A DNA stretch of 64,000 bases from Amoebophrya sp. A120 (lineage: Eukaryota; Protista; Dinoflagellata), in NCBI GenBank assembly GCA_905178155.1, contig CAJINV010000002.1:8575224-8639223 (forward strand), in the 5' to 3' direction. The translations under genes and the position numbers were made by a program. The notes below the pieces were generated by a model. It was not told the DNA's origin and did no database searches. It saw nothing but the letters and a program-made list of their open reading frames with translations. Shown here one piece after another: positions 4,882 through 60,275 of the stretch (position 1 is its first letter; every line of letters begins with the position of its first letter).

Positions 4882-7865
4882 CTACTTCGGCATCGGCGGC
4901 ATTCCTTCCGTTCCTTTGAACGGGCTTCCCCGAGAGGCGGCGCTCAAGACTTTATTTGCCTTGATCTTCTGCGCGAATATCCAGGAAAAAACAACCATCC
5001 CCATCAAATTTGTCATGCAAAACATACATATAAAATCTGTGTTTGTCATGCAAAAAATGGATGTGGATGGGTTTTTTTCTCTGGATAGCGAACTTGCTCA
5101 CCGTAGAGGAAGTAGGGGCTCCACCCGCACCAGCCGGCGCCGCTCCGTTGGAGCTGCTGCTACTGACGGCGTCCTCTTTTTCCTGCTCCTCCGCGAGTTT
5201 CTTCGCTGACGCTGCCAAAACGTCGGCTGCTGTAGCGGATGAGGAGGAGTTGCTGCCGAGAAGCGGTTGATGGCTCTCCCCGCTGTTCCGCGTGGACATC
5301 TTGCCGCTGCGACTGGACTTCTTCATCATACCAACACGGAAGCGCTGCTGCGGAGAGGGTGACTTTTCAACAGTTTCAATCAAAACGGAAAGATGACCCT
5401 CGAGCTGCAAATCCGCCTTCTCAAGGTACTGCTCTTCGTCCACCGCGACGACGTTTTCCACCAACGACTCGATCAGTTTCTCGTGGTAGGGAGCGGACTT
5501 CAGGAACGTCTCGGCCGGCATGATTTTGTGGTCCGTGATGTAATCGGCAAACTTCCGCGCCCACTCGATCTGCCGCAGGTTCCTCTCCGCCAGGTGCTTG
5601 CGCGAACGCAGGGAATCCAGCTTCTTCGCGCCGAGAACTTTTATCTGATAGTTAGAGGAGGCACACAACGATTTTCATGCTTTTGCATTCAATTTCATCA
5701 AGCCAGATCACTTTAGGAGAATATGATATCTTACAAAATCTTGCTTGTCCTTCTCGTCGGCTGATCGGCCTGGAAAGAAGAAAAAAAAGGAATCTCAAAC
5801 AGGAACAAAAGTACCTGCAGCTCCAGTTCCCTCGCTCTTTTCGCCGCACTTTCGAGCAACTCCTCGATGTTTGACTCTACTTCAGCGGACCGCTCGTCGA
5901 TTTTACTCATCTGTAGTTTGAGGTTGTCCGTAGCATCGTCGACGTATTCCGGCATCTTCATCATCTCCTTACGAACCTGCTCGTATCGCTCGCGGATGTG
6001 CGTCAGCGTGTGGGTTGCAGCTCGACCTGAAAAAAAAACATGCAGCAATAGTGATTCTCGCCGAATATTTTCTTTGCAACAAAGTGCAAGACTTCTAAGC
6101 CACTACATTCATAACAACCGAAGAGATCCACGTCACGACGTCGCACTCACATCATTATCTGCACCTTTTGAGTGGCTTCCGCTGACCTTGCACGCAACGC
6201 AGAGGGCCTTCTTGCAGTCCAAGCACCACCACTCGGCTTTTCTTTCGTTATGGAGTGCGCAATGTGCGAACGTGGGCTTCATGTCGCTCAGAGGCCTGGT
6301 GTATGATGGTCAGCAAATGAGGTTTGCTCGACATTCAGAGACATGAGTTGCCAAATGAAAATGAGATTGCGAATATCAAAATAAACGTAAACCACGCATG
6401 AGCAAATAAATCATAAAATCAAATACACGACTGTCCTCTGCTCCTTCATCATAGGCAATTTGTCGAAGAGATCGTCCAAGCACGCCTTGCAAAATGCCCA
6501 GCCGTCCTCTTCGATGCAAAACTCGGCTGTTTTTCATTTTGAGAAATCTGTAAAGTATTGTACCCACATCAGCCCGCTAAACACGAAGAGACATCAAAAT
6601 CGTCGCAGAGAGAACGAAGGAAGATCATCTTCATCATGGAAGCTTCACTTTATATACACCGTACCTGGTCTTTTGTTGTCTCCTTTGCAGCTTCCGCACC
6701 ACGTTACCGGCTTGTCGATATCCTCCTCGTCTACGCCGCCGCCCGCCCCGTCGCCGCCAATCATGGTTTTTGGATTTAAGCCGAATTCCAAGTAGTATTC
6801 CGGCACGATTTGCGTGTGATCGCGGATCACGTAGGTCGCACGGAAATCCTGGGGCGAATTCTTCTGCAGTAAGACCATACTGTCGTACTCGTCCGGAATC
6901 TGGTTACACAGAAAATAGGACTCGTCGTAGGTAACGAAGGGTTTCCTGGATTTTTTTGTGTTTGCTTGCGGACATCATGATCATTTTCAAAGCCTTCCAT
7001 CCTTGTACTTACAATAAGAAAGCAGAAGCACCTTCAAAATCCAACCCCCGAGAATAAATTGAAGGCATTCATTCATCGCATTATCATACCTGACAAGTAG
7101 TTTACATCTTAGCAGCGCTCTGGGCAGGTATTCGGCTGCGTTTCGCTCCTCACGCGGTATTTTTGGCGCCGACACACCGGCAGTGCTGCTGCTGCTGCTG
7201 CTGCTTGGCAAACCTGGGATTTTTGCGGAAGAAGCAGTGCTGCTGGCGCCGACGACGGAGGAAACTGGCGTGCACTCGTCGTCCGCAATGTCCTCCTCTT
7301 CGATCTTTACTGGCGTGTTCATGGCATCCTGCTTCACCAGTTGCGCAATGTTACCAACGTGGATTTTCACCGTGTCGCGTGGCTTGAACCCCTTCGACGC
7401 GATGGTGTCTAATCTGGAGCGGAACTCACTGGCAAGAACGTATCCGTTCACAACTTTTATCCTTTTGTTGCCGTCCGACATCTGCTTGCGACCAAAGTCG
7501 CGGACCAAGCTCGGGGTGACCTGTTGTGAGTTTCTTTATGCTTCGCAGCTGAGCACTCGGCAAACAACTAGAGGACGTGATCCGTGAGCGGCGGGGCACC
7601 TGTTCAAGATGATCAACTTGCTGCTGCAAGCACGACCATCTTCGTCACATCAAGCAGGGCAATTATAGCACACTCATTTCTTCATCTTCGTGCAGCATCA
7701 AAGGAATACATCGCATTCAAACGCCCTCTCCAACTCTAACTGCGGATCACGGCAAGCGCAGCGGAGGGCGTACGCTATTGGCGCCACCGTGTCACCCGTT
7801 ACTTCCATCAGCGGCAAGCGGCTATTTGCGTCCGGCATGATCGCTTTGGCGAGCGAGGACGCCAT
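4882..7865 (-). CDS. PARP-like (ADP-ribosyltransferase fold) + tandem B-box + coiled-coil protein, ~652 aa
   Basis: GT-AG introns 7521-7709, 6946-7089, 6527-6664, 6296-6426, 6027-6164, 5645-5814 plus a 115-nt non-canonical intron give a 1959-nt open frame. Motifs: LLRCKLLV..PDEYDS..TYVIRDHTQIVPEYYLEF; WCGSC..FCIEEDGWAFCKAC; CALH..WCLDCKKALCVAC..H..H. Confidence 0.75.
4978..5087 (-). mobile_element. IR-bounded introner-like non-canonical intron (110 bp + 5-bp direct repeat)
   Basis: tatccaggaaaaaacaaccatcc...ggatgggtttttttctctggata; gcgaa at 4973-4977 and 5088-5092. Removal gives SKFAQKIKANK...PMPK*. Confidence 0.85.
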
Positions 7866-8289
7866 GGTCGGCAGCGGCTTCTTAGGTTGATGATGTACAC
7901 GGTTTTCTCGTATTGATTCTACATGTACGTAGGGTGTGCAATACCTCCGACTCTCCCCGGTGCGTGATTGCAAATTATTTCGCTGACATAGAATCTGAAT
8001 CGTATCAATTTTGCATAGCGCAGATATACTTGGTTCGCAACCACATTTTAGAAAATCTTTCTCATCTTTACAACCTTCGCCCTCACTACACTTCGTCCTC
8101 CAGTCATTCCCTCATAATATCCTCTGTCAGGGGCTGACTTTGCTCCACACCAAGGACATTCACAAACAGTAAAAGAGCCAAACTCACGGCTGTCAGCTTC
8201 GGGAGGTTTCGCCTTCATTAAGACGAACAGTCGGGAACGGAACACAGACACAACTGCATTTTTCGGCCCCTGTCAACAAAAGCAAAACA

Positions 8290-9807
8290 TGGAGCATGAC
8301 GAGCACAAGAAACGTCAAAGACCCGGAGCTGGGAGCGGGGTAACAGACATACCAGCGGCAGCCAGGCAGCCCCACTGGAAAAGGCTGCCAGCAAATCCAT
8401 CGAAGGAATCAGCTTCGCGCCTGGCAAATGACAGCCGCGCCACTGCCCAAATAATGCAAGCCCACTGGCTGCGCCGCGACGGCGGCGCCGGCCCTGCTTT
8501 CCCCGCCGGCCGGCGCGCGCCGCGGCGCCTGGGCATGGCAGAGACGACGGGCGCCAAGGCATGCTGTTGCAGAGATGCCGCCTCGATCCCCATCCTCCCG
8601 CAACGCCGCGGAAGCTGTTGCGGTAGGTGGTCTGCAAACCAATGCCCGCCGAGAAGTCCCCCGGCGGCGTCGTCGCCTCTGTCACTCTTCGATGTGCGCG
8701 GCGCGGTTCGCGGGCGCGAAGCCACTGGCCGGCGCGCAAAACAAACGCCCGCCGGATCTTGTAAAGCGGCCGCAGCTTCGGCAATCCTTTTGGCCGTGGT
8801 GGGATGGGCTGGCAACACGAGAAGAGGCACCAGAGAGAGCCCCCGCAGGTCACTCTTGCAGGGCTGGGCCGGGGGGCAACAATCGACCCGGGGCCGCGTC
8901 GGGCGCTGCGTGCTGGGCCAATAGCTTCGAGGGCCAAAACTCCGCGCCTCCGATGGATTGCCACCGGGCGAGCCGCCAAAGCCATTGCGGGAAACGGCGG
9001 GCATCAGCGAGCGCAGAAATGGTTGGCCGGCGGGCCACCGGGCCATCCACAAGGGCTTGGCGACAAGCCACACCCAGAGGGGTCTGGCACACAGGCAATT
9101 TCAGCCCCCGCCGAAGCGGCGATCGTTCGACAGTGCTGGTAGCGGCGACCAACCGAATCCGGCGCCAGAGCAGCACGGGCGCCACAACATCCGCCACAGC
9201 GCGGGCGCTACGCCACCCAGAAACTCCACGACACAAACGGCCTCCATCACCGCCGGCCCCCCCCGCGTCCCCGCGAGGCCGATGCCCATACTTCCTGCGC
9301 CTCCGCTGGCGAAGCTGCGAGGCAGACAGGGTCGGCGGGCTGCGATCACACGAGCAGGCACTGTCAGGGTGAGTCAAGGCGAAGCGCACTGCTGGGCGAA
9401 CGCGCGCACGCGTCGCAGTGCATGGCCGAAGGTGTTCAGCAGCGTGCCCCCGTTACCCGCGCCGACCTCGGGGGCCAGCGTCGTCCTGAACATGGAGACG
9501 ACGAGCGGCAACTCCGCCAGGGCCGCAAGCGGGGGCGGCTCGCTGGGGGCGGTTCCCGCAGTTCCCCCCGCAGGCTTGCGATGGCTCTCCCTGGTCCGGC
9601 GACTCTCTTCACCAGGATCAGGGGCCTTGGCCTTGGCGGGCATTGCGTCTCTCTTCAACATTCTGGGCCGTCGAGTATCCTCTTCCTGCCCCGAAAAGAT
9701 TCCGGCGATCCCGAGGCGCTGCACTTCGCCGCGACCAAGGCGCCGGCATTCCGCTCGTCGTGACGAACTCACCACAGCACTAGCGCCGCCGGAGGTAGCA
9801 CATCCTG
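8290..9807. other. GC-rich island with degenerate overlapping ORFs (possible decayed mobile element)
   Basis: Abrupt GC rise, long Ala/Gly/Pro/Arg ORFs in many frames, no recognisable domain; abuts a TIR element. Confidence 0.4.
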
Positions 9808-11319
9808 TGCAAATGTGCCCAGGGGGTAGGATACACACAAAGAAATGTAGGAAAAAGGTGGAAAAAAGTAGGTGCTGAGGTTGGTGGCGAAGCTGGTGCC
9901 GAAGTTAGTGCCGAAGTTGGTGCCGAAGCTGGTGCCGAAGCTGGTGCCGAAGCTGGTGCTGAAGGTTCCGCAGCTCAGAAGCCCGAACCCCCGGGGCGGC
10001 GCTTCGTTGGGCCAGAGGTAGGCCGAGCCGGCTAGGCCCGCCGGAGCTGGGCCAGGGATAGACTTGCCCGGCCAGGGGCTGGGCCAGGCGTGGGACCCGA
10101 TGTACCGCTAGGTGCGGCGCCGGGCGGGGGTGGGGCAAGAGGCTGTGCGATAGGGTGGGCAGCCAGGAGTGAGGCTGGCGCTGGGCGCCCAGGGGCTCGG
10201 CCAACGGTTGGCCCACAGTGCAAGACAAAGCACCGGACGAAGGAAAATATCCACAAATGGAAAGCGGAGCCCAAATACGCACAAGCAGGAGTCTTTGCAG
10301 CCAACACGCAGGAAACTATTGCGTGTGGGCTGCAGAGGTTCGCCCTTGTGGGCAATTTCCCCGCACGCCATACCATCGCCTCTTGCAGTTTCTTTATCGC
10401 CCAAGGCGGATCGCTTCTCGAACAAGTTTGCATCTCGGTCGCCAACGCGGAGAGCTGGCAGAGAAGCTGGTAGGAAAGCTCTCTACCAGCTTCTCCACCA
10501 GCTTCTCCGACCGCAATCTGCTCGGTCCTTCACGCAAAGTAGCAAATTACTGCAATAAAAAATGTTTTTCTTGCGCGAACATCATCGCACTTCCAAACGC
10601 CTTCGCTCTTTCGACGAAGGTGCTTGAAGGTGCGGCGCTGAGGTGAAAAGGACCTGCAAGGCCTTGGGTGAGGAGCGTGCGCAGGATTTGGAAAAGCGCG
10701 ACGAATACGCAAGCTGCTGCGTACTCAAAAAGAGCCATGCTATGATGGCGCGCTTGCGTGCAACTGTAAAGCTTTGCAGCCAGCACGCCGCAATTCGTTG
10801 CGTGCTGGCTGCAAAGACTTAAAAATCCGGCTCATTCGAGCCTTAAGTTGTTGCACCGACCCAAACAAACCAGCGCAGGAACAGGCAGGCACGTAGGCCA
10901 CAACGCAAGGCGCGATTGGTATTTCGGGCGGGCTTTTCGGGCTACGCCGAGAAATTTGCTCCAGTTTCCACTTTCAGCCACGGGCCCCAGAACTTTTGGG
11001 CTTGCTGCCGCTGGGAAAAGCGCGGCAGCAGCAGGTGGAAGCCTGCTCTTGACAACGGCCCCCACGTGGACTTCATGGCGAGACGACTAGCGGCGCAGCA
11101 CCTTCATCGCGCAACACAAAATTGAAAAGCCAAATAGCATGCGCACAGAACAGAGGAAGCGCAGAAGCCATAGCGCAATAAATGCAGGCCTATGGACTGC
11201 GCAACTGGGCCCAAAGCTCTGCAATTTTTTTGCAACAAATATGCCAAAAGTGCAAAAAAAGCTGTATTTTTATCAGCCCAAAAGCTTTGGGCTTACCCTA
11301 CCCCCTGGGCACATTTGCA
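9808..11319. mobile_element. 1.5-kb non-autonomous element with perfect 23-bp terminal inverted repeats
   Basis: tgcaaatgtgcccagggggtagg (9808-9830) is the exact reverse complement of 11297-11319. Internal tandem repeat and hairpins; no transposase motif seen. Confidence 0.75.
9871..9966. repeat. 12-bp tandem repeat, 8 units, consensus ggtgccgaagct
   Basis: Units read directly at 12-bp period from 9871 to 9966. Confidence 0.95.
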
Positions 11320-12276
11320 TTTGATATAGCAAGCACTCAATCAACAAAGCCAGGCAGCCCCTTCATCTTGGGAATCAATGTATTGTGCCGGATTTCAAGA
11401 ATACAGAAAAATGAAAACGCTGAAGCTCTTCTACATCATGCACGTTGAAAATTCATATACATAGATGGCCAGAACGCGCGCAAGGTGCTTGCAAGCGGCA
11501 ACAACTCAAAACTTACACTCATAGACGGCGACGTTTCGGCTTCCTCGTCTCTCAAACTGCCTGCCGCGGAAAAACACTACTACAGGATCTTTCACTTGTT
11601 TTGCCGACTACTCGTCCAACGGTGTGACCAATGATCTGCGCCTGCGGTAGTAGTAGGTACTAAGCCAACACACCATAAGCATCTTGGAACGCCAAGCAGA
11701 GTCGAGGCTGCGAACAAAAAAAAGAAACGGAGGCGACCTTCTCTTATCTGTGAGTCAGACATTCGGCCAAATATTTGTGATACCAAAAGGCAATACTGAT
11801 GAATGTGTCGCAGAAAACGGTTCGGATTTCGATTTGATACAACAAACGAGTGGAGTTTTTTTAAAATGTGACACTGACACGACAACGCACGGTGCATACT
11901 GCACCTGCACATACCTTGATCCAGATCTTTCGCCAAGGGTAGATCAATATTTCTTTTCGCAAAAAATAAACACTAGAGGTGTGTTGAACTAGAAGTTCTG
12001 AAAAGACAACATAATTACAAGCCATACAGGTTTTTACAAGAATCACTGACCAAAAGCAAAACGCCTATATGCATAATCTGGTGTCGTTGTTGTTAGATCA
12101 AACTTGTATTTCTCTCTATAGCAGGCGTCGAAATTTTATGATTCCTATCCCGGTTCATTATATTCGTGGTACAACTCTCTATTGATAAAAATCCTTATCG
12201 TTGCAAAAAATCTAGAGTTCAGCCGAAGTGGATGCAACGAGTTGCGTCTACTCCTCAGGAAGTAGCAGTCTGCCGA

Positions 12277-15200
12277 TCATTCCAGGCTCCCGACGTCCTG
12301 CATCGCCAACGGCGCCAGGATTGCCCACAACGACAACAACCCCACTGTACTGCGGCCGAGCTTGTGAATCTTCGCCGGCTGCTCCGCGGCGTTTTCCGCA
12401 TTCTTGTCTTTTTTCACGGGCTTCGGCGGCGCCTCCTTGTAGATTGCGTTGGCCAATTGCAGTGTGGATTGCGGCAGAATGGAGGCGATTAACGGGCTTG
12501 AATTGAACAGAGACGGCTGCTCACCACTTCCGAGAAAATCGTTTTCTGCGTCTTCCTCTCCAGTGCCCGCTGTGAAACTCCCGAGCCCATTCCTCCCCAT
12601 TCCCGCACGCCCACAAGCGGTCGGCACGGTGGAACTTCCGGTCGTGACAAGGGCTGGAAGTCGGTCCGCTTCCACCTGGCCGATGGTCGTCATCTGCACC
12701 CCTCGAGCGGTGATCAATGCCTTCGAGGTTTTCTGGAACATCACACCCAGGTCGGGCAGTCGCTGCTTCGGGCCGTACAGCATGTGCTGGAGATGCAAGC
12801 CGAAGAGTAAATTCTGGTCAGCGTATTGCTGACTGATGTCCACTAGGTCGAGTTTCATCTTCGAAGTCGTGACATCTACTTCTTGTTTGTTCGTCGCTTT
12901 AATGTTTGCTGCGGCAGTGTCGCTACTTCCACCCTGACTGTGCTGTTCCGGCGCTCCTGCTGCAGACGCAGTTCTTATATTACCGTCCGCCCCCGCCGCC
13001 GGTCCTGCACTCATTCCACTCAAAGAGAACCCCTCCTCCCCGATGTTGCCGCAGAGCCACAGCAGCATCTTGACGTGCAACAGCGTCCACTTTCGCTTCA
13101 CGAACACGTCCAAGAACTGCTTCACTTTGAAGAGCTCCGCGAGTTTGGAAAATTCCGTGTGAATGTCGACCAGCGGGCGCCAATAGCGGACGTGTTTCTC
13201 CAGGCTTTTCGGCGACCGGCCAGCGGCGGCGGACGAGGATGACGCGGTGTAGTTGTTGACCATAGGATCCTTTTTCGACGTCCCGAAAAAGTTGTAATTG
13301 TACTTGTCGTGGACAGCAACAGTCGGATCATTTCTGCTATTCGCGGACCCTGTAGAAGTTGTTCTGGACGGAGTTGTGGCTCCACCACCTGCACCATGCT
13401 TTGCTCCGCTATAATGTGCTGTGGTAGTTCCCGCGCCATTCGCTGTCGATTCCTTCGACGACGAAGCCCCGGAAGTAGATCCCCCCTTGTTCTTCGAGGG
13501 CTTCTTCTCCGCGGGCTCCTGGCCGAGGAGTTCTTGGTTGATCTGGTCTTGGAGGTCAAAACCAAAGTCCGACTCGTCGTCCTTCGTCGTTCCGGGCGTG
13601 GACTCCCCAGCACCGTACTGATCGGTAGAAATGTTATGATTTCCATTCGCCAAAAGTGAACTAGAATTCGGGTTGTTCGTTAATTGCTCGTCTTTTCCTA
13701 AAAGTTTGTCCAAATAACTGTCGATCTCCTTGTCGAGCACCTTCCCGTCGTCGATGTTGTTGAAAAAATCCTCCTCCTCCGCTTCCAAAATCGCCGAGGA
13801 GAATTCGAAATTGTCAAAGTGGTGGTCGAAGTACCCAGTTTCGATCAACTTCTCGATGTCCGTCTCTTCCAACTTGTGCATCAAAAGTTTCTCTTTGCTG
13901 TTGCGAACCACCAAATCTTCGTAATTGATGCTGTGTTCACCGGAAGATCCGCCTCCGGAGGACTGAAACAAATGCTGCGCCAATCGGCTATCTGGGTTAG
14001 ATAAAGACTGTTGAACTGTTTTTGAAGATGTCGCTTGTTGTGTTGCTTCGCCTTTCAGTTTCTCTTTGTGGTGAGAGCTGCTGTTATTTTTTGTGGAAAA
14101 GGACCCGTCCTTATTTTTCTTGCTGTTGTCTCTACTGTCAGTGGCCCCGTAGTACCCCTCGTACTCCTGTTTGTACTGGTACTCGTCGATTATCTTCTTC
14201 ATCTTCTTCCCCTCGTAATACACCGAGTCGGAATATTCCCCCCACAAATTCCACTCCGATTTTAGCTCCTTCCGCCACCTGCTCTCCTGTCGCAGCGCGT
14301 TGTGCTTGAAGCTGTTCACTTCGAACGCGGAATTTCTGCCGTTGTCGAGAAACTGGTGGTGCTTGTTTTTGTGGTTGCTCGGTTTGTGCTTGTGGTAGTG
14401 GTCACAGTGAACAGAGTACGGGTCTTCCTTCTGGGTTGCGGAAACATACTCCATGTACTGGTTTCTTCTCTGCAACCACTGCGCTCCGAAAAACTCCAAC
14501 AGGCGGGAGGGGTCGCGGGGCTGAGGTGTGTGTGTGTGTGTGGAGTGGAAATCGGGAAGATAGAAAACACATTTTGGAGAAAAGATAGAATTAGAAACCT
14601 CGAGTACAAGATCCGTGGCGTGATGATTCGTCGAAAGTGAAATATGAATGCTACTGAACAGTCTAGTTAAAGAAAAGGCATGATCAACATGAAAAGGAAC
14701 TGAAATCATGCGAAACTCTGCTTGTGCTGAATCACGGAGAAGTAAAATGGTATAAAAGCAATACGGGCTTCCCGGCCTGATGTCGGTCCTTGGGTGACTT
14801 CAGGCCCAAGGGTTTTTCGTAGTGCTCGTAGTAGAATTCGCTCAGCATTTGGAAGGCCTGGCCGAAGTTTCGGCAGTTTGGGACGGCCGCAGTACTGTCT
14901 GCCGGCTTGCCGTTTCCGATCCCGTGGCCACTCGCGCCCGTGAAAGCGGTGCCCGGAGTGCCTAGAGAGTGCCAGTCGCTGCTGCCCCCGTCCGCGCTGC
15001 AGCCGAAATTGAGGTATTCGACGATGGACGCCTTGTCTTTCTGCATTCGGTACAAGAGCGCCGGCTGGTTGTTGTTCACCGACATGCTGTCCTCGAAGTG
15101 TTTCAGGAACGCGATAACCGTGAAGGGGAGGAGGGAAAACGCTTTCTGTGATTCGGGACACAATTCTCGATTCTGCACGTCCGGGAAGCAGATATTTCGG

Positions 15201-18200
15201 AGCAGAAGCTGCGACTCCTTCTTTTTCATCTGCAGGCACCAGTCGAAGGACTCCCACTGAGTAATCTGCTGCACAGCGGTACCTGCGGCGCTGTTCTCCT
15301 TTTCCGCCCCGTCTTTGTCTTTCGCCGCTGTGCCGTTCACGGTGGTAATTGCCGCGGAATCTGATTCCGAGCCCGTGTTCGCTCCTGCATTGGCACCTCC
15401 ACCAGCTGGAGCCGCGGCTAAACTTCGGCCGGAGCTGATGTTTGCCCAGCGGCCACCGTCGTACTTCCCGGGAACTCCGTGTGTGAACTTCATCTCCTCC
15501 TTCTTCAGCCGCCGCTCACTCATCGACGTGATGGAGGTCAAAAGCACTTTCACCAAGCACTGCTTTGGCCAGTAGTCTAAACACACCCGCTGGAGCGCGT
15601 ACAGTCGGCGGTTGTCGATGGAAACGAGCTTTTTGTAGGGACAAAAGTGGTTGCTCGCGCAGCTGTCGCTGGTCACATCTTGGTCCATCAAAAGAACCCG
15701 GATCGAGGGGAACGGTGTGTAGAGTAAGTGCACCGAATTCGCCAGCGAGCCGGACTGCTTCGCCTCGAAATTCGTGATCTTTCCCTTGTCGCCCACCACG
15801 GTCGACCGGTTTTCCGCTTTTGCTTGCAAATAGTTGTTCTGAATCTGCTCCTGCTTCCGGTCCTGTTCCTCCGACTCGGTTCCCGAAGAAGCGACCAGTT
15901 GTGCTGGGGGCTGCTGGTTCGTCAGCAAGTGCGGGTTCCACAACACCTGTGGCCCGTTGGTCCCGAACGCCAACTCATTCCAGGAGCAGACGCCGGAGGA
16001 CTTCCCCCCGCAAAGCGATACTTCCTCGGACCAAATGGACTGAATCACTTCCTCCACCGGACCTTTCCCGTGGAAGAACGGGTGGATTTCCCGCTGCGAA
16101 AAGTGGATGTGCAAGGGGTTGATCCATCGCTCCTCCCAATTTAGCCTTTCGTTTCCTAAATTCTGGATTTCCTCGGTAACGAACTTGCAGAAAAACCCAA
16201 GGTCGGGTTGATTCACCAGGGTGCGTAGGTAGAAACCGACCGCGTAGCTCAAATAGAAATGCTTGGCGTCCTGGGAAAGAAAGTTTTCCCCCACGGTAGT
16301 TTGTTTCCACGAGTTAAAGCTGTTCTTTGTCAGCAACAGATTCTGGTTCTGGTTATACAAGCTATCTCCCCCGGCGGAACTCGGAGGTCGGGGCGGATTG
16401 CTTGATGTATTTCTCTGGTTGGTGGACGCCATTGTGGCCCGCCGGGAATCCTCATCCTCGAACTCGAGTGCGGTGCCGTAACTGGACACAGTCGTGCACG
16501 AGCCAAACGGAGCAGTCGAAGTCGAAGAGTTGTTTGCTCTTTGCAGTGTGCTGCCCGTAGTACTTGAATCATTGTGTTCCACCTGCTGCGGCGCACAGCT
16601 CCCCTGTGCATCAGTCGGCGGGGAGGGCGGAAGGGGAGGGAGCGGCGGTAGGGGGTTAGTACCTGTCGAGGAGGTTCGCTCTGCTGATATGCTGCCTTGC
16701 TGTGCAGCAGCATCTGTTTGCTGCTGCTGCTGCGCGCCTCCAGCAGCGGTATCTTTGCTACTGACCGTGTTGTGTCGCGTCAAGTAGGTCTCTTCGTCCA
16801 GGAGATCCTGCAATTGCTTCAGGTAAGGGTCCATCTGGGATTTTTCCGCGTCAGCCAGCAAATTCTCAACCACGGGACAGCGATTCATCTGTAAACGCAG
16901 CAGTGTCGAGAAAACGGATCCGAACTGCCCAAGAGCGGAGGTAGATGATGCTTTTGCGGTGGACATGCAGCCCTTGCTATTAGTTTGTCCTATTGTGTTG
17001 CTCTTCACGAAGTCGTCGACGCGTACGAAAAATTTGTCTCCGGTCCTCCGAACTGCGGTCATTTTCGGCAACTTATTGAGAATCTTGTTCAACACCAAAG
17101 TTGCGGGCTTGGGTTTGTCGAAAGAGCTATAGTGACTTGTCTCTTCGTGTTTTGGGGAAGGCGTTTTTGGTTTCGTCTTCTGTTCAAAGAGCGGCAGCGG
17201 GCCAACGATCTGTCCATCGAAATCAGACACAAACTCGAAGCACGCAGTCGGAAGCAGTGTCTGGTTGCTGGAACTCTGTACCGTTTTGTTGTTTTTCGTG
17301 TCGTGTTTATTGTCTCTTCCCGCAGCCGCCCCGCCGGCCGTCTGAGCGGTCGCGGCCTGTTGTCCGGCAACAGAAGTGTCGGTATAGTTCTGCTTCTCAT
17401 ATTCGTGATACGGATTGTACCGGATGTGCGGTTGCGGAGTCTTGTCAGACGCCGCTGCATTGTGCGCCTGCACCTCCTTCTCCGTCGATTGTGCAGCCGG
17501 CGCGTGCTTCTTGTTGCTATTGTGCTGCTGGTACAGCGCGCTCCAGTCCTGCTCTTGTTCATACTGAACAAGATTCTGGTGTTTAACGTTCGCGTTATTA
17601 ACCACATTATTTCTCTGCTGTTGGTTCGCTGCAACTGGTTGCTGGTAGTACTGGTCGCTCTCCTCGCCGAGTTCGTACCGAATATTGTTGTACTTCTTTC
17701 CACCGCCACCGTTCGCAGTCTGCTGGTGTCCAGAACCAGCTGCACCTAAGTGGTACTTACTTGCTTCCACCGGATGCTCGTCGGGCTCCGAGTCGCTACC
17801 CGGGTCGATAATCATGTCCCCGTAACGAAACTTCTTGCCGTCGTTGGTTTTGAAATTAAACAGCGGGTTTTGGGAGTCGTCTGCCTGCTGTAGTTCTGCG
17901 ATCGTCACGTCTGCCATGATATCCTCGAAATTAGTCGCGGAGGGGGCGGCATTTTTCGTTTCTTCTTCGGCCGATGTTGAGGGTGCCTGTTTAACATTTC
18001 CTCCTGCTTTGTTCGTCTGCTTCGGATCAAGCTCCACTGGCGGAGCAACGCTACTCTTCCCTTGCGTTGCAGATGTTCCGGGCAACACACCGCCAACCTG
18101 CACGAGACTGCCTCCCTTTGCGAGCAGCATTTTCTGCCCCTTTTCGGTCAGATGCGACGGATGAACCACCATTGCTGGAACAGCCGCACTACTGCCGGGC

Positions 18201-20505: not shown

Positions 20506-22725
20506 CTACTCCAACGAATGTCCTTCCCCTTCGAACACCATGGTCATTTCAACTTGTTTATCATACTGAAAAGCGCCCCGCCCACAAAAGTGAAAGTTTC
20601 CACCAACGATTGCGTCGCATGAGCAGATCGGCTTCACTGTGACTGTGCTGCTTTCCTGCGAACGCGATGAATTCACTACCATGCATGGAAAATTCCTGAT
20701 GCTGAAGCTGATACATGTACTACATCCAAGGCCGCAGCAAATGACAGACTCTATAAAGGAACCTCCTTTTGTACTACAGAAACTACACGCTTCCCTTCTA
20801 GGGTTGTAGGGGCACTTCTCACTTGGATACTTTTGCTTCTTGTTCCCGCCGGCGGCTGGTTTTTCGTAACCCTCTTTGCTCATCATGTTCCCCGTGTTGT
20901 ACCCGTACGGAGGCTCCTCCCGCACCCCGCCCGGTATTCTTTTCGATATCCAGGGCGTGTCGTCGCTCGCGTCGGACATCATGCTGGAGTCCAAGTCCCG
21001 GGGCGAAACCATCGCGTTGTCGCGGAGCTGGTCTAACCGTGCCGGCTTCCCGTCCAGCCGCTGGCCGGCGCCGCCGAACACACGGGAGTTGTTCGTGGAG
21101 GCGATGCTGCTGGCCGCGTCCATCATGTCCGAGTCGCGCGGACTGGGTTCCATGTTGGAGTTTCCGAACGTTTTGTCGGGGGAAGAGAACTGATTCAGGT
21201 CGGTGCTACCTGATGAAAGTTCAATAGCAGGAGGTACTAGATTCATTTGATTTCATGTTCATTTGATATACGTGGTCTATAAAGCTTCATACACATACAT
21301 CACTACTATCAATCTACTAGGTGGTGTTTCGATTGCTGCAATTATGCTCGAAAAATGCGACTGTTCTATCAGCAGGAGCAAGTGCAGACGCAAAGGACCA
21401 CTACCTGTCGCTCCTCCGCCTAGCGGCAAGGACGGTGGTACTTGCGGCTCCACGTAGTCCTTTGGTGGCGCGAAGTCCACGTTCACGTCCGTTTCGATCA
21501 CACAGATCGCGTTGGCGGGCTTGCACTCCATTATCTCGATTTCATACCGCTTCTTGTTGTATGTAATGCTGATACCTGAGTCAAAGCGACAGGTCTGAAT
21601 TTCGTCACCGTGCAATCGATTTTTTTTACAACGATTTTGGGCTAATATATAATGCTGGGCACAAAGACAGTTGCTCGCAGCAGGTGAGATATAACCTGCA
21701 CAGCCACAAAAAGGAAGAGGCTTGCAGAGCAATAGATGCAACACGGTTAGACCGAAATCGAAAAAGCACAAACTCAAATCAAAACTGTATGTATACAATC
21801 GCCGACTGTCAAGGTCGCGAATCCTCGCAGGCTGTTCTCCAGGACGGTTTTTGGATTGTGAATCGACAAAAAATCGCTGGTTACTGGCCGGAGTTTGACG
21901 AATTTTCCCTTTGGCAGGGAGGTGTTCATGATCCTTATCAAGTCCCCCTCGGATATGACTTGCTCAACCGTTACAATCTCAAACGTTGCAATAGAGTCTG
22001 CGATTTGTCTTGCATGATGAGCATGACAGACTCGCAGAGCGTTCCACTTTCTGCAATACAAATTTCGCCAGATTGTAGTGGGGTTTGGGGCTCCGGAGCT
22101 TGTCATGCGCAATCCTATAAGAGTTGGCATGGCTAGATCATGCACTCTTGCATCACAGATTTCCATATTCTATTGTAACGTTTGACATTGTAACACCTGA
22201 GAGGGTTATATCGGACAACAACAGATTCTGCATCATCCAATAAGGAAGGTAACACGTTCCCTCCTCAGCGACAAATTCCTGCACGCCGCAGTGGGTGCGG
22301 TGCGTGTTACCGTTGGAAGCCTGTGGATGTTGCATTTCAAAGGAGTTCTATTTGGATCATCTCTAAGCGGTTTTACAGAGATTGTGACACAACAAAAACA
22401 TCAAAATTGCGACATAAAACTCTATCCGGGAGGATTGATGAGGAGGAGCGGGCGACCAGAATCAATTTTTTCCAATCATCTAGTATAATACCTCAAACAG
22501 CATCGGGTAGCTGATGTTGAGACGGGCCAGGTTGTCCAGTGCTGAGCTCGGCAGTATTATCTTGTTTCCCGACTCCAGGTCCTCCCTTCCGGCAAAGCTG
22601 ACCGGGTAGCAGCGGTACTGCACATCGAAGCGGGCGTTCGGATTGTGCATCGCATTTCCAAAAAAGTTCGCGAAGAAACCCCCGCCTCCGGGGTCGCCCC
22701 CGCCGCCGGGGCCGCGGTTGAACAT
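20506..22725 (-). CDS. UFD1: Ubiquitin fusion degradation protein 1
   Basis: [67 protein letters not shown]-like [14 protein letters not shown] introns 22321-22491, 21576-21796, 21210-21404 and one non-canonical intron. 3' exon structure uncertain. Confidence 0.95.
21954..22210 (-). mobile_element. IR-bounded introner-like non-canonical intron in UFD1 (257 bp + 5-bp direct repeat)
   Basis: TAT...ATA ends, ~42-bp imperfect IR, tcgga at 21949-21953 and 22211-22215. Removal restores conserved [13 protein letters not shown]. Confidence 0.92.
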
Positions 22726-23679: not shown

Positions 23680-23780
23680 AACTCGCTGAAAATCAGCGCA
23701 CGGAAACCGAAACAAAACAGCTGGCATAAGCATATGCCCACTGTCTGTCTCTGTCTGTGCGCGTCACACTTTTTTGTAGT
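23680..23780 (-). promoter_or_regulatory. Candidate SECIS element of the SelT mRNA (atypical)
   Basis: Minus strand GUGAC-gcgcac...gugcgc-UGAU: tandem GA/AG quartet closing a long hairpin, ~350 nt after the SelT stop. Lacks the usual unpaired AA. Confidence 0.55.
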
Positions 23781-24120: not shown

Positions 24121-25632
24121 CTACGGCACTGCGCTCTGCATCAACTCCAGGCCAACCCTATGAATTGCAAAAGCATCGTACTAGTATAAATCGCATGACA
24201 AATTTGCTCAGCATCATCATCATCATTGAGACGGACCCCCTGTGGTCGTCCTCACGGTGTCGTCTTGGCCCTAGGCTCAGCATGAGAAATGTAATTTGTA
24301 ATGCTGTTTTACCTTGGGATGGGAATTTGTAATGCATGACTGCGATTACTACGAGTACGATACTTTTGCACAGGATAAACCCGTTTACACCCGTAGAAGA
24401 TGTCGTGGTAGTTTGGCATGCGGTATGGATTGTAAAAATGTCTGGGTCTGGAAGGTTGGAACTTGTCACGCGAAGTCTGGATAGTACAGAAATTTGTGTT
24501 GCATGATTACCAAAAGGCGTCCACGTTTGAACAAGTGTAGCGGCAGTTTGTCATGCGGATAGACATGATAGAGACTTCACAGAACCTGTCATGCTAAGTC
24601 CTGCATTGCAGACCTCTTGGGGCATGCAAAATATGCATGACAAATTCGCATTCTTCCAGACCCAGACATTTTTACATTTGATATGCGGTGGTTATTTGCC
24701 AGACTCGACCATGCTACCTTGTCCTGGTAGTAAATCTCAAACGCACCGGTTTGCAGAAAGGCGGACGCGGCTACGTTTCCGAAAAGCCAGATAACTGTTG
24801 TGGTGTGTAGATAATTAACTGACGACTGAATTTCTTCATTGTCAAGATGCATACGCAAAAGATGAGGCGCCACGGTATTTATGCGTGTGTTTTTATTCGC
24901 TAGCTTACGAATGTATGAAATGTCGTTCTCGCTTTTGCTTTTATTCCAAGCACGACGTTGCTACGACCATTGCTTTGACATCACAAATCTTCAAATTGAA
25001 TTAAGTACTCATGAAACTGGCCATCTTGTTTCCGCTCAGCGCCTGCACCAGGCCCGGTATTGGCAGCTTGAGCATCTTTTCGAACAGCATCTCGCCGGCG
25101 AAGACGAGAAAGAAGAGGGTAAGTTGAAACATCTGGAACACCTGCGCCATGTACTGCCTCGAGGGTGGGACGGGGTAGTTCGCCCCAAGCACCTCGATGT
25201 CGTCACGCGCAGCGCGCTCTAAAATCAGCCGGTGCACCTGTCGAAAGGTGCCCTCGTAAGCTCAGCCGTTGCAGTACATCACGATCACCTGCGGTGGTTT
25301 TTCATGACTTTTGATGCAAAAACGAAGATCCAATTCTGCATGGATGGACAGGAGCACTGGGTGTTCTTGCATATGCAAAAAATAAAAAAGAAAAATCGCG
25401 CGCATGCAAATTAATTCGTAGTCAGATCATGATCACATGTATCACGACCCAGGCACTACGCAATCTTCTTCTTGACGAAAAACGTACGATTCAGTACCTG
25501 ATTATCTGGCATGTTTTTCGGTGATGGATCCCAGTCTGCTTCTGCGGCGCGCAGGTTGGCAACTTGTCCTTGCACAAATTGAGCTAACCCCGCGGCGATG
25601 CAAACCTTGTGTATGAAGTTTTTTTTGTTCAT
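24121..25632 (-). CDS. SELENOT: Selenoprotein T (Rdx family), ~199 aa, Sec at UGA 25262-25264
   Basis: Signal-peptide-like N-terminus, VIVMYCNG-U-AY (CxxU), GANYP, hydrophobic segment, QTGAFEIY. GT-AG introns 25289-25497 and 24795-25008 plus two non-canonical introns give a 600-nt CDS. Confidence 0.93.
24159..24377 (-). mobile_element. IR-bounded introner-like intron in SelT (219 bp + 5-bp direct repeat); same family as 44397-44542
   Basis: tatgaattgcaaaagcatcgtact...agtacgatacttttgcacaggata; aaccc at 24154-24158 and 24378-24382. Removal gives CKRVGLELMQSAVP*. Confidence 0.88.
24424..24683 (-). mobile_element. IR-bounded introner-like intron in SelT (260 bp + 5-bp direct repeat); same family as 59628-59889
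   Basis: Perfect 24-bp IR tgtaaaaatgtctgggtctggaag inside TAT...ATA ends; tgcgg at 24419-24423 and 24684-24688. Removal gives WSSLANNHRMPNYHDIF. Confidence 0.92.
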
Positions 25633-44162: not shown

Positions 44163-46206
44163 CTACCTAGCCAGTGCGCCGCAACGCCCACCTCCTCGCC
44201 AAATGAATGATTTCTTGATTTCTCCACCGCATTTCTTTTTGTAAAATTCGCTGCTGGTTTTCCAGATTTGCAGTTGCTGTGCCAAGTCTTGCTTTTCTTG
44301 CACTAGAGTTGCGGTTTCTTCTTTCAAGGATTCGCACGCCTTTGATTGCCTTGCACACAAGAGTTCCAGTTCGTCAAATCGTCGCTGCAACTCCAATATG
44401 CATTGCAAAAGTATCGCACTCGTATAAATGCATTGCAAATTTCCCCAGCATGAGTAGAAATAAAATTTGTCATGCGGATTTACCTTAAGAAAAAAATTTG
44501 TAATGCATGACTGCAATACGAGTACGATACTTGCACAGGATATCCAGGGCAAAGTCCTTCAAATTCCGGTTTTGCTCCTTCAGCTCCGCCTGTTCTTGCC
44601 GAATGTTTTTCTCGTCCTCGAAGCTCAGGCAGGTCTTTTGCTTCTCTTCTAAAGCATCAAATTGGTTTTGCAGTCTTTCCTTCTCCAAATTCGCTTTACC
44701 TAGTTCCGTCACTGCACCATTCAGTCTTTCCTCCAAGCACGACGTTTTCTCCAGCAGGAACGAATTCTCCGCGTTCACGCGCTCGTTGTCTTGCTGCAGA
44801 ATGGTGGCGACTTTCTGGCTCTCCTGGACTTCCTTCTGCAGATGCAGCTTGCAATCCTGCGCTTCCAGCAGCCGCTCGTGGAGGTGCCTGTTTTCTCGGT
44901 GGAAAATCTCCTGGTCCTTTCCCAACGCGGTCAAACTGTGCTCCAGCAGCAACCGCTTCTCCTTTTTCAGCGCCTCTAACTCGGTATGCAATGCGTCGTT
45001 GCGCTTCTTGTACTCGAAATTGTACGTTTCGGCCTGTCTCAGCTCCGCTTGCAGATCGTGAACTTCGAATTCTAGCTCGATCGCGGTTTTCTTCTTGATG
45101 GAGGTGGGATTCTGGCTGATACTCGATGTTGGAGCACCGACTGACTGGTCGGGCTCGGGTTCGACTACAGTTTCCTGTTTTGCGCGACAGCTTTGATGTT
45201 CATCGCTGGACAAGGGAAATGGACAAGCGTCTTGCTCGCCATGCTCTGCGAAGATCATCTCCTGCCCAGGAGGCAATTTCAGTTCCTTCATGAACAAATT
45301 CGCGCCGACCGCGTCCGCAGCAGTCAATGCGATTGAGGAGTTTTTACTACTGATGTAGTTGAGCGCCGCCGTACAAGAATTGTATGCCGAAGAAAACGAT
45401 GAAGAACCACCATCAGTGCCAACCTGGAAATTACTCCCGCTTGCTCCGCTCATCCCGTACAGTTCTGCCGGGGAGAACATCGGCGGGGGCGGCGGACTGG
45501 GGAACGCGTCGGACTCTTTGCTGTCGGACAAGCCCAGGTCCGACGGTTTCAACTTTTGCAACATGCTGCCCTTCTCGGCGGAGGTGTAGGTCGGCGTCTG
45601 AGTTTGCAGCATTGCTGGATTTTTGACCTGGTGATGCTCTTCTGGCGCAGAACTCGCAAAGGGCTGCTGCCGCTGCTGATCCAAATCCTCGTCATGCTCA
45701 TGCCCTGTTCCTGTCGTCGCATCAAGAGGATCAGTGTGCAAATACAGGCGGGCTCGGTCGTCCTCACCGGCTTCGGCAGCGAAGTGCTCGCTTGTGCTTC
45801 TGCTAGTAGCGGGGTTTGATTTTTTCTGCTCCTGTTGGTCTTCAACAGTAGCGCCAATGCGACTAAGACCTCCGCCTTTCAAAGGAGAAATGAACTGGAT
45901 GACTCCTTTCTTGTTCTCCGGGGATGCTGCTGTTCCGCTCTTCGTGTTGCAGACGTTTTTGTCCGTGTCGATGGTTTTATCCAAAACGGCAGCTGGAATT
46001 TTTTGCTGCGCATTAGCGCCGTCTGCCAGTTTACGAAAATCGTGGCCATCACGGACGCCAGCGCTCGTAGCGTCCCGATCCTCAACGCCAGAGGCAAGCG
46101 CGCATTGCTCCTCCTGCATGCGCTCGAGAAAGCTCTGCATGTCCCGGAGAGTCGGAGAGGCCGACACATCGGTGGGCTTACAAGTCGCGCTCGCTGCTTC
46201 TGGCAT
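44163..46206 (-). CDS. Hypothetical coiled-coil protein, ~630 aa
   Basis: 573-aa ORF with heptad-rich C-terminus that continues (DFALELQRRFDEL) once the 151-nt non-canonical intron is removed. Confidence 0.7.
44397..44542 (-). mobile_element. IR-bounded introner-like intron (146 bp + imperfect 5-bp direct repeat)
   Basis: TAT...ATA ends similar to 24159-24377; flanks tccaa/tccag; frame restored on removal. Confidence 0.85.
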
Positions 46207-46813: not shown

Positions 46814-49800
46814 CTAGCTGTTGATAAAGTGCATGCGAAATTGTTTCTCCCGGTCCGCCTGTTTTGCCTTCCGTTCGCGCTCGTGCAACACAAAAGCGAC
46901 GAGCAACAGGACAACCAGCAGCAGTAGACACACAAAAAAGATTACGTAGAAGTAACCCGCCGGGTTTACCACCAGCTCGAGCGACCACTCATTTGACGCC
47001 GCGGCGCTCCACACTGAGACTGGACGAGGACGTCTATCGTATCGTGGACTGTCAGGTATCGCCCCTGCTCCTTTCGGCCTTGTTGCCGAAGATGCTGCAG
47101 AATGAGAAAGCCTCATTTCTCTGCTGGTTGTTTGCTCCAATGCTGGTGTGCCATGATCTTGATCGGATACAACCGCGGATGATGAAAAAGGGATGATCAC
47201 TGCCACGGCCGAGTTGGGCACGATCTGCGACCCCTCGAAGCGACGTGTGAATCCGCGCGCGTTGGGGAGGAAAGGAAGACACCCAATTTCGAAGTCGTCA
47301 ATGTAACTGTTCGAGTCCTTTAAGCCCAAATCTAGAAACGGCAGTTGCAAGCTACCAAAGTGATTGCTGGTCCCAAGTAAAGTCGTGCGGGTCTGCTTCC
47401 GTTCCAGGTTGCGCGGATTCAGATAGCCCAACTGGAGCGTGCAGGTGAACGGAACTATATTCCGAGTGGTGTAAATCGACGAAGTTGCACCAGCGGCGGC
47501 GCCAGGTCGCGCTGTCGGTCCTGGGTGCACCACCATCTGCTGGTCCGACGGCTCGGGCACGGACAGGTATGGCGTTCTCAAACGTTACATTGTCAGCTGT
47601 TACATGATTTGTCAAGCAAAATTGCCTTCAGAATCGACACCATCAAGCTGCTTCGCATGACAAATTCCCAGAGGGCCAAACAGGCTGATAATCGGCGCCA
47701 AATCTGTCATGCAAGATGCGCGCGATCCCTCCTATCACTTTTGCTATTCTTGCATCACGAATTCATGCAACAGTTGAGAATGTAACGTTTGAGAACGCCA
47801 TAACAGGAGCGCTTGCGTTTGGATGTGGAACGAAATTTTCGCCGGGTTGTAGCAGAAAACAAAGTATTTGTACATACCCACTGCTGCAGCAGTACGAAGC
47901 GTTGTCCCAGTAGCATCATTCCTTGGAGTAAGCTCGAACGCCCAAGCAAGGATTTGCACCCTGCGACCCAAGTCCCCGTAGAATGCCGCGCCGCTGTAAT
48001 CACCCTTAGGAAGGGAAAACTTTTGGAAAACCTTTCTGTGCAGTACGTTTTGGTGTTGGGCGTAGCTTGAAGATGATCGACCAGACCCTTCGGTAGTATC
48101 GCTTTCTGCTGGCTGCTCCGACTGCTCCTCTTCGTTACCAATTAGGAGGAAGGTGGTGCATTGGAACGAATCCTGAGCTCCTGGTTTATTCCTGGCACTC
48201 GTGTTTTCGCTATGAGCGTCGCCTGTCGACGTCATACTGCAGTAGGTGTACATGATATCGAGCTTGCCATCTTGATTCAAGTCACCCAGACGAAGCCAGC
48301 GGTCGTTAGAGAGCAAGCCATATTCAACACTTCTCCTTCCTGAAGCTGCAACATTTTGTCTGCGCTTTCCATGTTGTCTCTCATCCTCTCGCGCGTGAAC
48401 GGAGATCGGAATACGACGCCAACACGGATTTCTTCCCGAGCGTTCTTGTAACTCTGAATGCTGAGCAGGTGGCACGCGCACAGAGGCCTCCCCATCGCCC
48501 TCTGGGTGTTGTTCCGAAGCTTCCGCGAGGACATCATTGTTCTGATTCTGAAGAACATTCCCCCTGTCTCTTTCGATCTGGTTGCTTTGCCCATGATGAT
48601 GGTGCCCGCCGGCTGTGCAAGTGAATTCCTCAACAATAAGGGCAGGTTCCCTGTCAACAATCTCAGGCAACGGTGCATCCATGAGGGCAGCAGGAGTTTC
48701 TGCTTCATGATCTTCACCCGCAGACCCTACCAAGTCCTCTTGTGTAGCGGCTTGTTGACTGTTCCGTGGCATTTTCGCCCTCCGCGTACCAGAAGTAGAA
48801 GTTGAAAGGCACACAAGCTGCGTCTTCCCGGTACCAAACAAATCAGCAAAGGAAAACTGCGAATTTGCGTCTTCCGCTGAAGTGATTTCGGTTTCGCGCA
48901 GTTCGCGCGCAGGAGCGATTGAGTCGTATCCCCATTCTTTCTTTCGCAACCAGACAAAGCGGGTTCTTTGCTCTACTCCAGCAGGGGCAACACTGGTTGC
49001 GCTCTCATTGCCGGCTCCATCGGGAGCAGCCCCAAGAATCGGTGTGCTGACAAAAACCCATAATTGCACCACTGCTGCGCTGTTCGGCTTCATTTCGCCA
49101 TGTGCTCCCCGACCTTCGATCTTCTGAGTACCCTGTTGCCTTGACGTAATGTCCACGGGCACAATCAGTTCCGGAGTGTTGTCTCCGTCTAGATCTGCGA
49201 GGGACGGGGAAAAATGCTTTCTCACGGAAAAGACCACGCCATCTGTCTGCGCTTTCCATCCGGTTTGCAGCAGGAACTTCCCCAGGGGAAACTCCTGGTC
49301 AGCGGGAAAAAGGATGAGCCGGACAGCTGTTGCGGCAGTACTGCGGTGATCCGGACCTGTGCTGGTACCACTTCTCAAATCGCTAATTCGCACGCGGTCC
49401 GCCAACAAGAGATCCAGGCGTCCGTCGAAGTTCAAATCTACCAAAAATGGTTCGGAATCAGACGCGATCTCATCAAGTGTTTTCTCGTAGTCGCGCGTAC
49501 TGCTTCTCTCGTAGCTTGCGGCGTAGCCATAATTCTGGGGCTCCGCGCTTGCCCGAGAAATTGGGGGCTTTTGCCGCAGGTAGACCTGTGTGAGAAAAGA
49601 GGATGACTGCGAGGGAGCAGTAGATGAGACGCTGCTGGATCTAGCAGGACTAGCTCCTGATGAGGATTCTTGATGCGCACTGTTTGACGATCGTGGCTCG
49701 CTTTTGTTCCAGATCACGAGCACGTCCGGCAGGCCATCGAGATTGAGATCTGCGTGCGAGATCACCCGGACGGGCTTCATACTCCCATTCTCCACGTCGG

Positions 49801-58728: not shown

Positions 58729-59432
58729 GGTAAAAACTTTTAATTTTCAATGCAACTACCACGCGACCACTAACGATTGTAGCAATATAGTCAAACACTG
58801 TCAAAAAACAACTTCTTGGACTTCGCCAGTTCTTTTTCTAGATTTGCTTCTCTGCTGTTGTTGTGGCGAATCGTCAACGTAGTCGTAAAACAATCAAATG
58901 CTGCTGTCAAGTTTATTCGTATGTGTCTACAGATGATCTTGGTGATCGTGATTGGGGTTGTGCGCTCTGCTGACACTGCATATTAGACGTGATCTCATTG
59001 TAACTCTTGGGTTTCACGATATCTTCTGCACGGGCGTGGTAGCTGCATCCGTTATTAAGGTTTCATCTATGCTTCAAATCTTCAAAGATCTTCGCAGGTG
59101 ACTTGGGGGAAGTCGATGAATAGAGACTGGTTTTGGAAAGATTACTTGGGACTGGAACTGGTCGCAGCAAGATCAGAAATTTCCAAGAATTATGTCACTT
59201 TTTCCACCAGAATTTCATTGTTATTTCAACTACCACGCACCTTAACAACGGCATACCGGTGGGGTGACTAGTCTGTTGTCGATAGTACTCAAATAAAAGT
59301 GAACATCACAGCAGCCAAGAACAAAATGCAACCATGATACAGTTGGCTGCATTCGCAGAGACGAGATTTCCTTTTCCATGTTGCGAAGCTACTCCTGATC
59401 GATGTGTAAGTACTTAATTAGTGCTGATGATC

Positions 59433-60275
59433 TCACGACGGTTTATGTGGTGATGGGTTCGAGGTTTCGTCAGCATCAGACAATGGAACCGTCTCACTAG
59501 CGCCGGGTTCACCTGCAAGTGTGCAAGAACCATCTGTAGTTTCCTTTTGATCTACCGTGACCGCAGCGGCGCGCCTGCGTTCCAGCCGATCGCGACGCAA
59601 CACCACCGCCTCATCTTCTTCTTTTCGTATCAACTGTAAAAATGTCTGGGTCTGGAAGAATCCAACTTGTCATGCTGATTTTGGATTCTAAAAAAATTTG
59701 TGTTGCATGAGCAGCAAAGAGTGTCCAAGTTTTGCTACACGGACAGAGCATTTGTCATGCGGTATAGGCATCAGGAAGCCCTCACAAAATCTGTGATGCT
59801 AGGGCATGCATCACAGACATCAGGAGTCATGCACCATGTGCATGACAAACCTGGCAATCTTCCAGACCCAGACATTTTTACATTTGATATTTCGATTCCG
59901 CTTCCAATAGATGGCGAGCTCGACCGCCGCGAGGCCGAAAACCAGAATGGGAATCGCGGGGTGGCACAGCTGGTCTTTCTGCGACGTCAGAAATTGCTGC
60001 AGGAAGTGCTTGTACCCCGTCTTGTCCCCATGGTTTGCGGACGAAAAGGAGCGGCGGCTTGATGAAGAAGATGTTGAACGCGTGGATGAGGTTTTCAAGC
60101 CCATGCTTGTGATCTTCGGAATACTGGTGCGGCAGATGCTTCTAGTGAAGACGCATGTACAACATGCGAGAGAGTCTCTTGCCAATACTGAGCTCAACGC
60201 CGCCGATGAGGCGGCTACACAACTTGCCCTCGTGGCGGTGGCCCCGGGCTTTGGCACCATAACGCTCCGCAGCAT
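59433..60275 (-). CDS. Small single-pass membrane protein, possibly mitochondrial, ~191 aa
   Basis: Ser/Arg-rich leader ending RRSFSS and one TM (AIPILVFGLAAVELAIYW). Continues as KRNRKEEDEAVV after removing the 267-nt non-canonical intron. Confidence 0.65.
59628..59889 (-). mobile_element. IR-bounded introner-like intron (262 bp + 5-bp direct repeat)
   Basis: tatcaactgtaaaaatgtctgggtctggaag...cttccagacccagacatttttacatttgata; tttcg at 59623-59627 and 59890-59894. Alignable along its length to 24424-24683. Confidence 0.93.

Follow-up and report, generated by a model that had tools for sequence, protein, structure and literature searches.

Introners of the dinoflagellate parasite Amoebophrya sp. 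A120 are described, in the sections of Farhat et al. 2021 (PMC7789003) available to us, as hairpin-forming non-canonical introns with a mean length of about 240 nt and no internal open reading frame (ORF), falling into many families (1,954). The same sections define them by a terminal repeat of TAT, seven variable bases and at least three A's, and by direct repeats of 3 to 5 nt at their boundaries; they report finding no repeat motif specific to a family and judge the elements a novel repeat type. Here, we analyzed a window of 64,000 nt of the A120 genome (the whole stretch under study; contig CAJINV010000002.1, positions 8,575,224 to 8,639,223, numbered below from its first letter) that holds seven such introners, E1 to E7, and found that a word of 8 to 13 bases is repeated between their otherwise differing inverted-repeat ends. 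The seven elements show the published repeat rule, direct repeats and hairpin and, in E1 to E4, removal from RNA without GT-AG ends, and to the terminal and direct repeats, the only ones described in those sections of PMC7789003, we add an internal word common to different families.

A later survey (Gozashti et al. 2025, PMC12130899), in the part available to us, lists 58 A120 families, most of 20 rows being given as terminal inverted repeat (TIR) DNA elements with the superfamily unassigned there. Its A120 elements are about 150-320 bp long, with duplications of 2-5 nt called automatically and mostly non-canonical splice sites, and one of them, family 38, carries integrase-like ORFs between inverted repeats and lacks Ginger termini and duplications. 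That part of PMC12130899 reports no cis-motif, and the word is absent from the 13 searched of its 14 supplementary files, as it is from the searched supplement of PMC7789003. Matches listed for 9-mers of the word together with "transposase" in the full-text literature were primers and vertebrate SOX/OCT sequences, with no transposon context among them. These searches turned up no publication with the shared internal word, which figures or unsearched supplements may hold. The elements are already published; what is added is a feature, the cross-family internal word, to elements of a familiar type.

Transposases of Ac/Ds, En/Spm and piggyBac bind subterminal repeated motifs. Lemi1 proteins bind the miniature inverted-repeat transposable element (MITE) Emigrant both at its terminal repeats and at repeated subterminal motifs, according to the part of PMC1636448 available to us. 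The word described here is likewise short, present in several copies and in both orientations, placed just inside the terminal repeats, and conserved while its spacers drift. However, its copies fill the whole interior at a phasing of about 16 nt rather than two subterminal zones only, and, unlike MITEs with subterminal repeats, the elements here also leave RNA as introns. Moreover, transposase-bound subterminal repeats are common to autonomous and miniature elements, whereas only miniature elements are seen here, in the 64 kb of the window and the 126 kb of loci. Introns without GT-AG, with pairing ends and a MITE-derived or MITE-like character, are found as the MITE-derived introns of Fritillaria (tunicates) and as the nonconventional introns of euglenids; we know of no shared internal word in either group, which we liken to the present elements by description. 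Among TIR superfamilies, Transib and Ginger2/TDD make 5-bp duplications. In Amoebophrya strain A25, the repeats begin with TTA.

Counting both strands, the word TGTCATGC and its complement GCATGACA have 16 exact matches in the window against 2.66 expected (standard deviation 1.71, maximum 7), a number reached in none of 100 dinucleotide shuffles, and the 10-mer TTTGTCATGC at up to one mismatch has 26 against 6.14 expected. Fourteen of the 16 exact matches lie inside the seven elements, which all start with TAT, end with ATA, have inverted-repeat arms, and together make up 1,489 nt (GC 0.42). The remaining 60,490 nt hold the other two, at 246 and 30934, both without the extended flanks and without repeat context; two is the number predicted by chance, and the match at 30934 was set aside as fortuitous. 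The core spelling given in the first-pass annotation of this DNA is real, and the motif is better written in its extended form, AAYYTGTVATGC, in which the two T's preceding TGT are Y and the middle C is variable.

RNA evidence comes from two runs (X3 and X4) whose sequences behave as transcript contigs, aligned to positions 4801-24800 only. Within this interval, RNA contigs skip E1 to E4 exactly, with a joint ambiguity of 5-7 nt as expected from the duplication. They also skip nine introns with CT..AC ends, that is, GT-AG introns on the minus strand (1,497 nt, GC 0.41). These nine contain no exact word and one match at up to one mismatch, in contrast to 14 and 27 in the seven introners (Fisher p = 1.2e-4 for the exact counts). 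The first-pass annotation had judged by eye that the motif is sparser in GT-AG introns, and the counts of 0 versus 14, at equal GC and near-equal length, agree; therefore, the absence of any excess over canonical introns, named there as grounds for giving up the idea, is not what this window shows. Two other RNA-supported introns, at 14517-14764 and 20555-20830 (524 nt in all), are also non-canonical in lacking clean GT-AG ends; they have no terminal repeats and zero copies of the word, and one of them has (TG)n at its low-coordinate end, the minus-strand ends of the other being GT..CA.

To extend the sample, metagenome contigs of one assembly were scanned with 24 bases of the E4/E7 terminal repeat, giving at least 134 stretches (126 kb); all counts beyond the window rest on the window plus these 134 loci among the matches listed. 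BLAST of the window against the loci gave 68 hits, the 25 longest of which all fall on E4 or E7, and viral contigs gave 0 matches to this family-A repeat. An element finder blind to the motif, requiring TAT/ATA ends, a 5-nt duplication with at most one mismatch and a local arm score of at least 24, had 0 hits in five shuffles of the window and returned 158 distinct elements from the window and loci, 110 of them family-A-like and 48 others. One composite (L046, 50-547) was dropped, leaving 47 non-A elements, and the window candidate E0, described below, was left out of family counts as well, leaving 46 for the Markov control. BLAST clustering (E < 1e-6, at least 60 nt) gave 12 clusters of sizes 112, 10, 10, 8, 4, 3, 3, 3, 1, 1, 1 and 1, and at least 11 families are without mutual BLAST similarity. 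The elements have the traits of MITEs: terminal inverted repeats, a target-site duplication, many dispersed copies (at least 134 stretches with the family-A repeat) and no ORF.

With 35 nt removed at either end, the interiors of family A and of the non-A elements both have TGTCATGC/GCATGACA as their top-ranked 8-mer. It is present in 106 of 110 family-A elements (249 copies in 21,363 nt) and in 38 of 47 non-A elements (63 copies in 7,730 nt), while the window background has a single copy in 61,841 nt; a first-order Markov control on the 46 non-A interiors predicts 0.92 occurrences, with a maximum of 4 in 500 trials, where 62 are observed. At up to one mismatch, each of the 47 non-A elements carries two to six copies. 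The flanks of the word have the same logo in both sets, with A at -3, Y at -2 and -1, and a base other than C at +8 (249 and 70 exact copies in A and non-A, respectively). DNA of the loci outside the elements is an unclean background: it has 144 word matches, of which 111 lie no more than 300 nt from an end where a locus was cut.

In family A, we aligned the 110 copies after adjusting direction, which reversed 49 of them. Mean column identity to the consensus is 0.948 in the terminal repeats (62 columns), 0.863 in the motif (48 columns) and 0.683 in the other internal columns (152). The first word copy lies 41-43 nt from each end, and a poorly conserved spacer of 10 nt separates the terminal repeat from this subterminal copy, where identity is back at 0.95. 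The top internal window of eight columns is TGTCATGC itself (consensus positions 43-50), which 63% of copies keep intact, the median being 12.7%. The two ends are not identical in this respect, with TGTCATGC at one subterminal copy and TGTGATGC at the other in 53 of 110 elements and TGTCATGC at both in 24. The word is the best-conserved internal feature of the elements. In 26 mutual-nearest pairs, the per-site difference is lowest in the motif (0.042), with 0.057 in the repeats (Fisher p = 0.012 against other columns) and 0.076 elsewhere, and recent constraint on the word is modest beside the deep one.

The families also share the layout of their interiors and the form of their ends. With one representative from each of 11 families, 24 of 35 spacings between adjacent copies fall within 15-18, 30-34 or 47-51 nt, against a mean of 7.3 and no value of 24 or more in 3,000 random placements, a descriptive test, as the spacing windows were picked after the data had been viewed. 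Element interiors resemble a degenerate array whose unit measures about 16 nt. Every family has the tip TAT[C/G]N6AAAA: of 22 arms taken from 11 families, all start with TAT, 21 have C or G at position 4, and 17-20 have A at each of positions 11-14, and no base preference was seen in the 5-nt targets of 156 elements. The first-pass annotation had taken the terminal repeats to be unrelated and free to vary, which does not hold, since all families have this tip together with a 5-bp target duplication.

We consider it moderately probable that the word is a repeated double-stranded DNA binding site of a putative transposase common to all these families. The orientation of the word bears on whether it acts in DNA or in RNA. 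Gene strand was called with a codon-usage model built from seven long minus-strand ORFs of the window, which was right for 80 of 80 held-out pieces of 240 nt, with 1 ambiguous; the longest frame across the junction had been tried for this purpose and was abandoned as too ambiguous, making no call for 127 of 157 elements. Relative to transcription, family A lies in the same direction in 32 cases and in the opposite direction in 41, with 37 lacking a call (p = 0.35). A fixed orientation of the word relative to the transcript, as a strand-specific splicing signal needs, was not found: in sense RNA the ratio of TGTCATGC to GCATGACA is 98:87 in 80 called family-A elements and 22:25 in 32 called non-A elements. 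Moreover, eight of the nine elements of family F have four to five copies all in the same direction, and the five called ones are split two and three by gene strand, so some transcripts hold only one reading of the word.

This absence of strand bias, together with the one-way arrays of family F on both gene strands, favors a site at the DNA level over an RNA excision factor. Between the two agents named in the first-pass annotation, a transposase and an excision factor, the choice would accordingly fall on the former, as a putative one. The proposal made there of a common site uniting the families stands insofar as a conserved, repeated cis-element does run through families that BLAST does not connect, which fits one mobilization system; the freedom of the inverted-repeat sequence that went with it is lost. 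In the mechanism we propose, a single trans-acting DDE-type enzyme would serve all families, cutting at the tip TAT[C/G]N6AAAA and docking on the internal words in a manner modeled on the subterminal repeats of Ac/Ds, En/Spm and Emigrant/Lemi1. Spacings of about 16, 32 and 48 nt would place several protein molecules in register, and removal from RNA would depend on the terminal hairpin and not on the word. The wider proposal, put forward tentatively as one that may well hold, is that, in this parasite, every TAT...ATA introner with a 5-bp duplication belongs to one superfamily with a two-part cis code, namely the tip TAT[C/G]N6AAAA and an interior tiled at about 16 nt with AAYYTGTVATGC, read by a single putative transposase.

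Several points weigh against a transposase site. The available sections of PMC7789003 report no A120 transposase and argue against general transposase-mediated mobilization, and no transposase domain occurs among the 41 window ORFs of at least 150 amino acids. All loci were retrieved through the family-A repeat from a single assembly, not necessarily one close to the window genome; the spacing test, as said, is descriptive. In predicted RNA folds, motif bases are paired at 0.82 in family A and 0.74 in non-A elements, against 0.69 and 0.66 overall, and 32-45% of motif bases pair with another copy of the word. Finally, near-identical pairs of family-A copies differ at 52 of 1,244 motif sites and at 292 of 3,859 sites in the remaining internal columns (odds ratio 0.53, p = 1.7e-5), and this lower rate in the motif could reflect constraint after insertion, that is, a role at the host or RNA level.

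The last three observations, along with the precise removal of the elements from RNA, are what one would look for if the word were an RNA-level signal, either the pre-mRNA site of a removal factor or the nucleus of a long hairpin uniting the exon ends, since slight over-pairing suits a hairpin and fewer motif differences are expected under host selection on inserted copies. We nevertheless regard such a signal as unlikely. Sense RNA has no orientation bias, and in eight of the nine elements of family F, those with a strand call being found in both gene orientations, the copies cannot pair with one another because all run in one direction. In the subterminal pair of family A, seven positions are pairable in at least 97% of copies, whereas the central base is pairable in 30 of 110 and not in 80 of 110; besides, a hairpin requires complementarity, not one fixed word across 11 families. 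Neither an RNA helix nor a single-stranded RNA signal fits a fixed word with a free central base and no regard for strand as well as a double-stranded DNA site does.

Quite unlikely, too, is that the word has no function and is the still-recognizable residue of one ancestor with an array of the 16-nt unit. The common tip and the 5-bp duplication do point to shared ancestry, the 16/32/48 spacing suits an old tandem or inverted array, and E5 and E7 retain a weak similarity of 47 nt around the word. However, the spacers are randomized while the word, at 0.95 in the subterminal copy versus 0.68 for other internal columns, stays near the terminal repeats in identity, and it tops the 8-mers in both element sets although the families are without BLAST similarity; under neutral decay, a single 8-13-mer would not have survived in all families. 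A host DNA-binding protein, chromatin or transcription factor, whose site the elements exploit and which could steer insertion to transcribed genes or sustain transcription through the insert, is very unlikely: strand symmetry and helical-type spacing suit any double-stranded DNA binder, and no transposase was seen among the window ORFs, but no target-site preference was seen either, and the word is at chance level in the rest of the window, intergenic DNA included, so a host factor would have no sites of its own there.

A 5-bp target-site duplication flanks all seven window elements, with one mismatch at E5, and the exact word starts given below had all been named approximately in the first-pass annotation, each one proving to be TGTCATGC or its complement. 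E1 (4978..5087, 110 nt) lies between copies of GCGAA at 4973-4977 and 5088-5092 and has two words on the plus strand, at 5011-5018 and 5044-5051, with the host gene on the minus strand. E2 (21954..22210, 257 nt; duplication TCGGA) carries words at 22021-22028 (minus) and 22101-22108 (plus) and one-mismatch copies at 22006 and 22150. E3 (24159..24377, 219 nt; duplication AACCC), of family B, has one exact word at 24193-24200 (minus) and near copies, TGTAATGC at 24297 and 24328 and AGTCATGC at 24334. The family-A element E4 (24424..24683, 260 nt; duplication TGCGG) has words at 24549 (plus), 24587 (plus) and 24635 (minus) and a one-mismatch copy at 24464. A short form of family B, E5 (44397..44542, 146 nt; duplication TCCAA/TCCAG), has its exact word at 44468 (plus) and near copies at 44499 and 44505. 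E6 (47568..47802, 235 nt; duplication ACAGG) has repeat arms of 43 nt that are 91% complementary, words at 47655 (minus) and 47705 (plus), and a one-mismatch copy at 47610. Family A is represented again by E7 (59628..59889, 262 nt; duplication TTTCG), with words at 59668 (plus), 59753 (plus) and 59840 (minus) and variants TGTGATGC at 59792 and 59808 and AGTCATGC at 59825; it is 77% identical to E4 over 266 nt. An early count of about four inverted-repeat types was a fair one, as BLAST forms five clusters (E4 with E7, E3 with E5, and E2, E6 and E1 singly) and the repeats of E2 and E6 are partly common.

One further candidate, E0 (36-705), was passed by the finder with a mismatched duplication and rejected as an introner, because its repeat and its single flankless word match look unrelated to those of the seven. 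Its region, 4-746, consists of 670 nt with homopolymer runs of G and of C, enclosed by an inverted repeat that is long but weak (82 nt, 72%).

The segments skipped by RNA contigs are 4973-5087 for E1 (with a 5-nt ambiguity), 21949-22210 for E2, 24154-24377 for E3 and 24418-24682 for E4. Each element leaves RNA along with one copy of the duplication, and the removed segments have the non-GT-AG ends GC..TA, TC..TA, AA..TA and AT..AT, respectively. For E5, E6 and E7, we infer intron status from the ORFs that result from removal: once the element and one copy of the duplication are taken out, the minus strand reads open for 377, 550 and 219 codons, respectively, whereas read-through of the unremoved elements would hit a stop after 20-24 codons. 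E6 interrupts an ITFG1-like gene, separating FG-GAP on its upstream side from C2_ITFG1 on its downstream side. Between E3 and E4, introners of different families, lies a micro-exon of 40 nt (24378-24417) that RNA contigs join on both sides. A minor RNA joint within E3 (24217-24323; depth 11.5 versus 174) corresponds approximately to the segment absent from short family-B copies such as E5, and a short paralogous copy rather than splicing may be its source. Raw RNA reads of 2026 with the same species label (X10 and X11) map to 4801-24800 in only 19 and 0 cases, respectively, where the contig runs of 2020 cover the genes; these two data sets may be of another strain or mostly host.

Elsewhere in the window, a GC-rich block at 8001-11470 (0.635 in 8001-10000) has almost no RNA depth, overlapping ORFs on both strands and no Pfam hits; it contains tandem units of 12 nt resembling GAAGCTGGTGCC, and an inverted repeat of 35 nt has its arms at 9808-9842 and 11285-11319. 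Minus-strand genes at 26640-28413 and 31517-33288, including an ion-transport/EF-hand protein and a Nop-domain small nucleolar ribonucleoprotein protein, are split into ORF pieces, which fits further introns.

The shared word makes introner mobility testable, as it can serve as bait for pull-down or DNA affinity purification sequencing (DAP-seq), for example, in the form of double-stranded AAATTTGTCATGCA. It is also a search key for an autonomous element in the full assembly and offers a means of sorting the A120 families in print, roughly 2,000 of them, into one or a few mobilization groups. Moreover, it separates two layers of these elements, in which the terminal hairpin would serve removal from RNA and the internal word mobility in DNA. 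If the introners of this parasite are indeed one superfamily served by one transposase, the word would be the first concrete handle on the machinery of the largest known burst of non-canonical introns.

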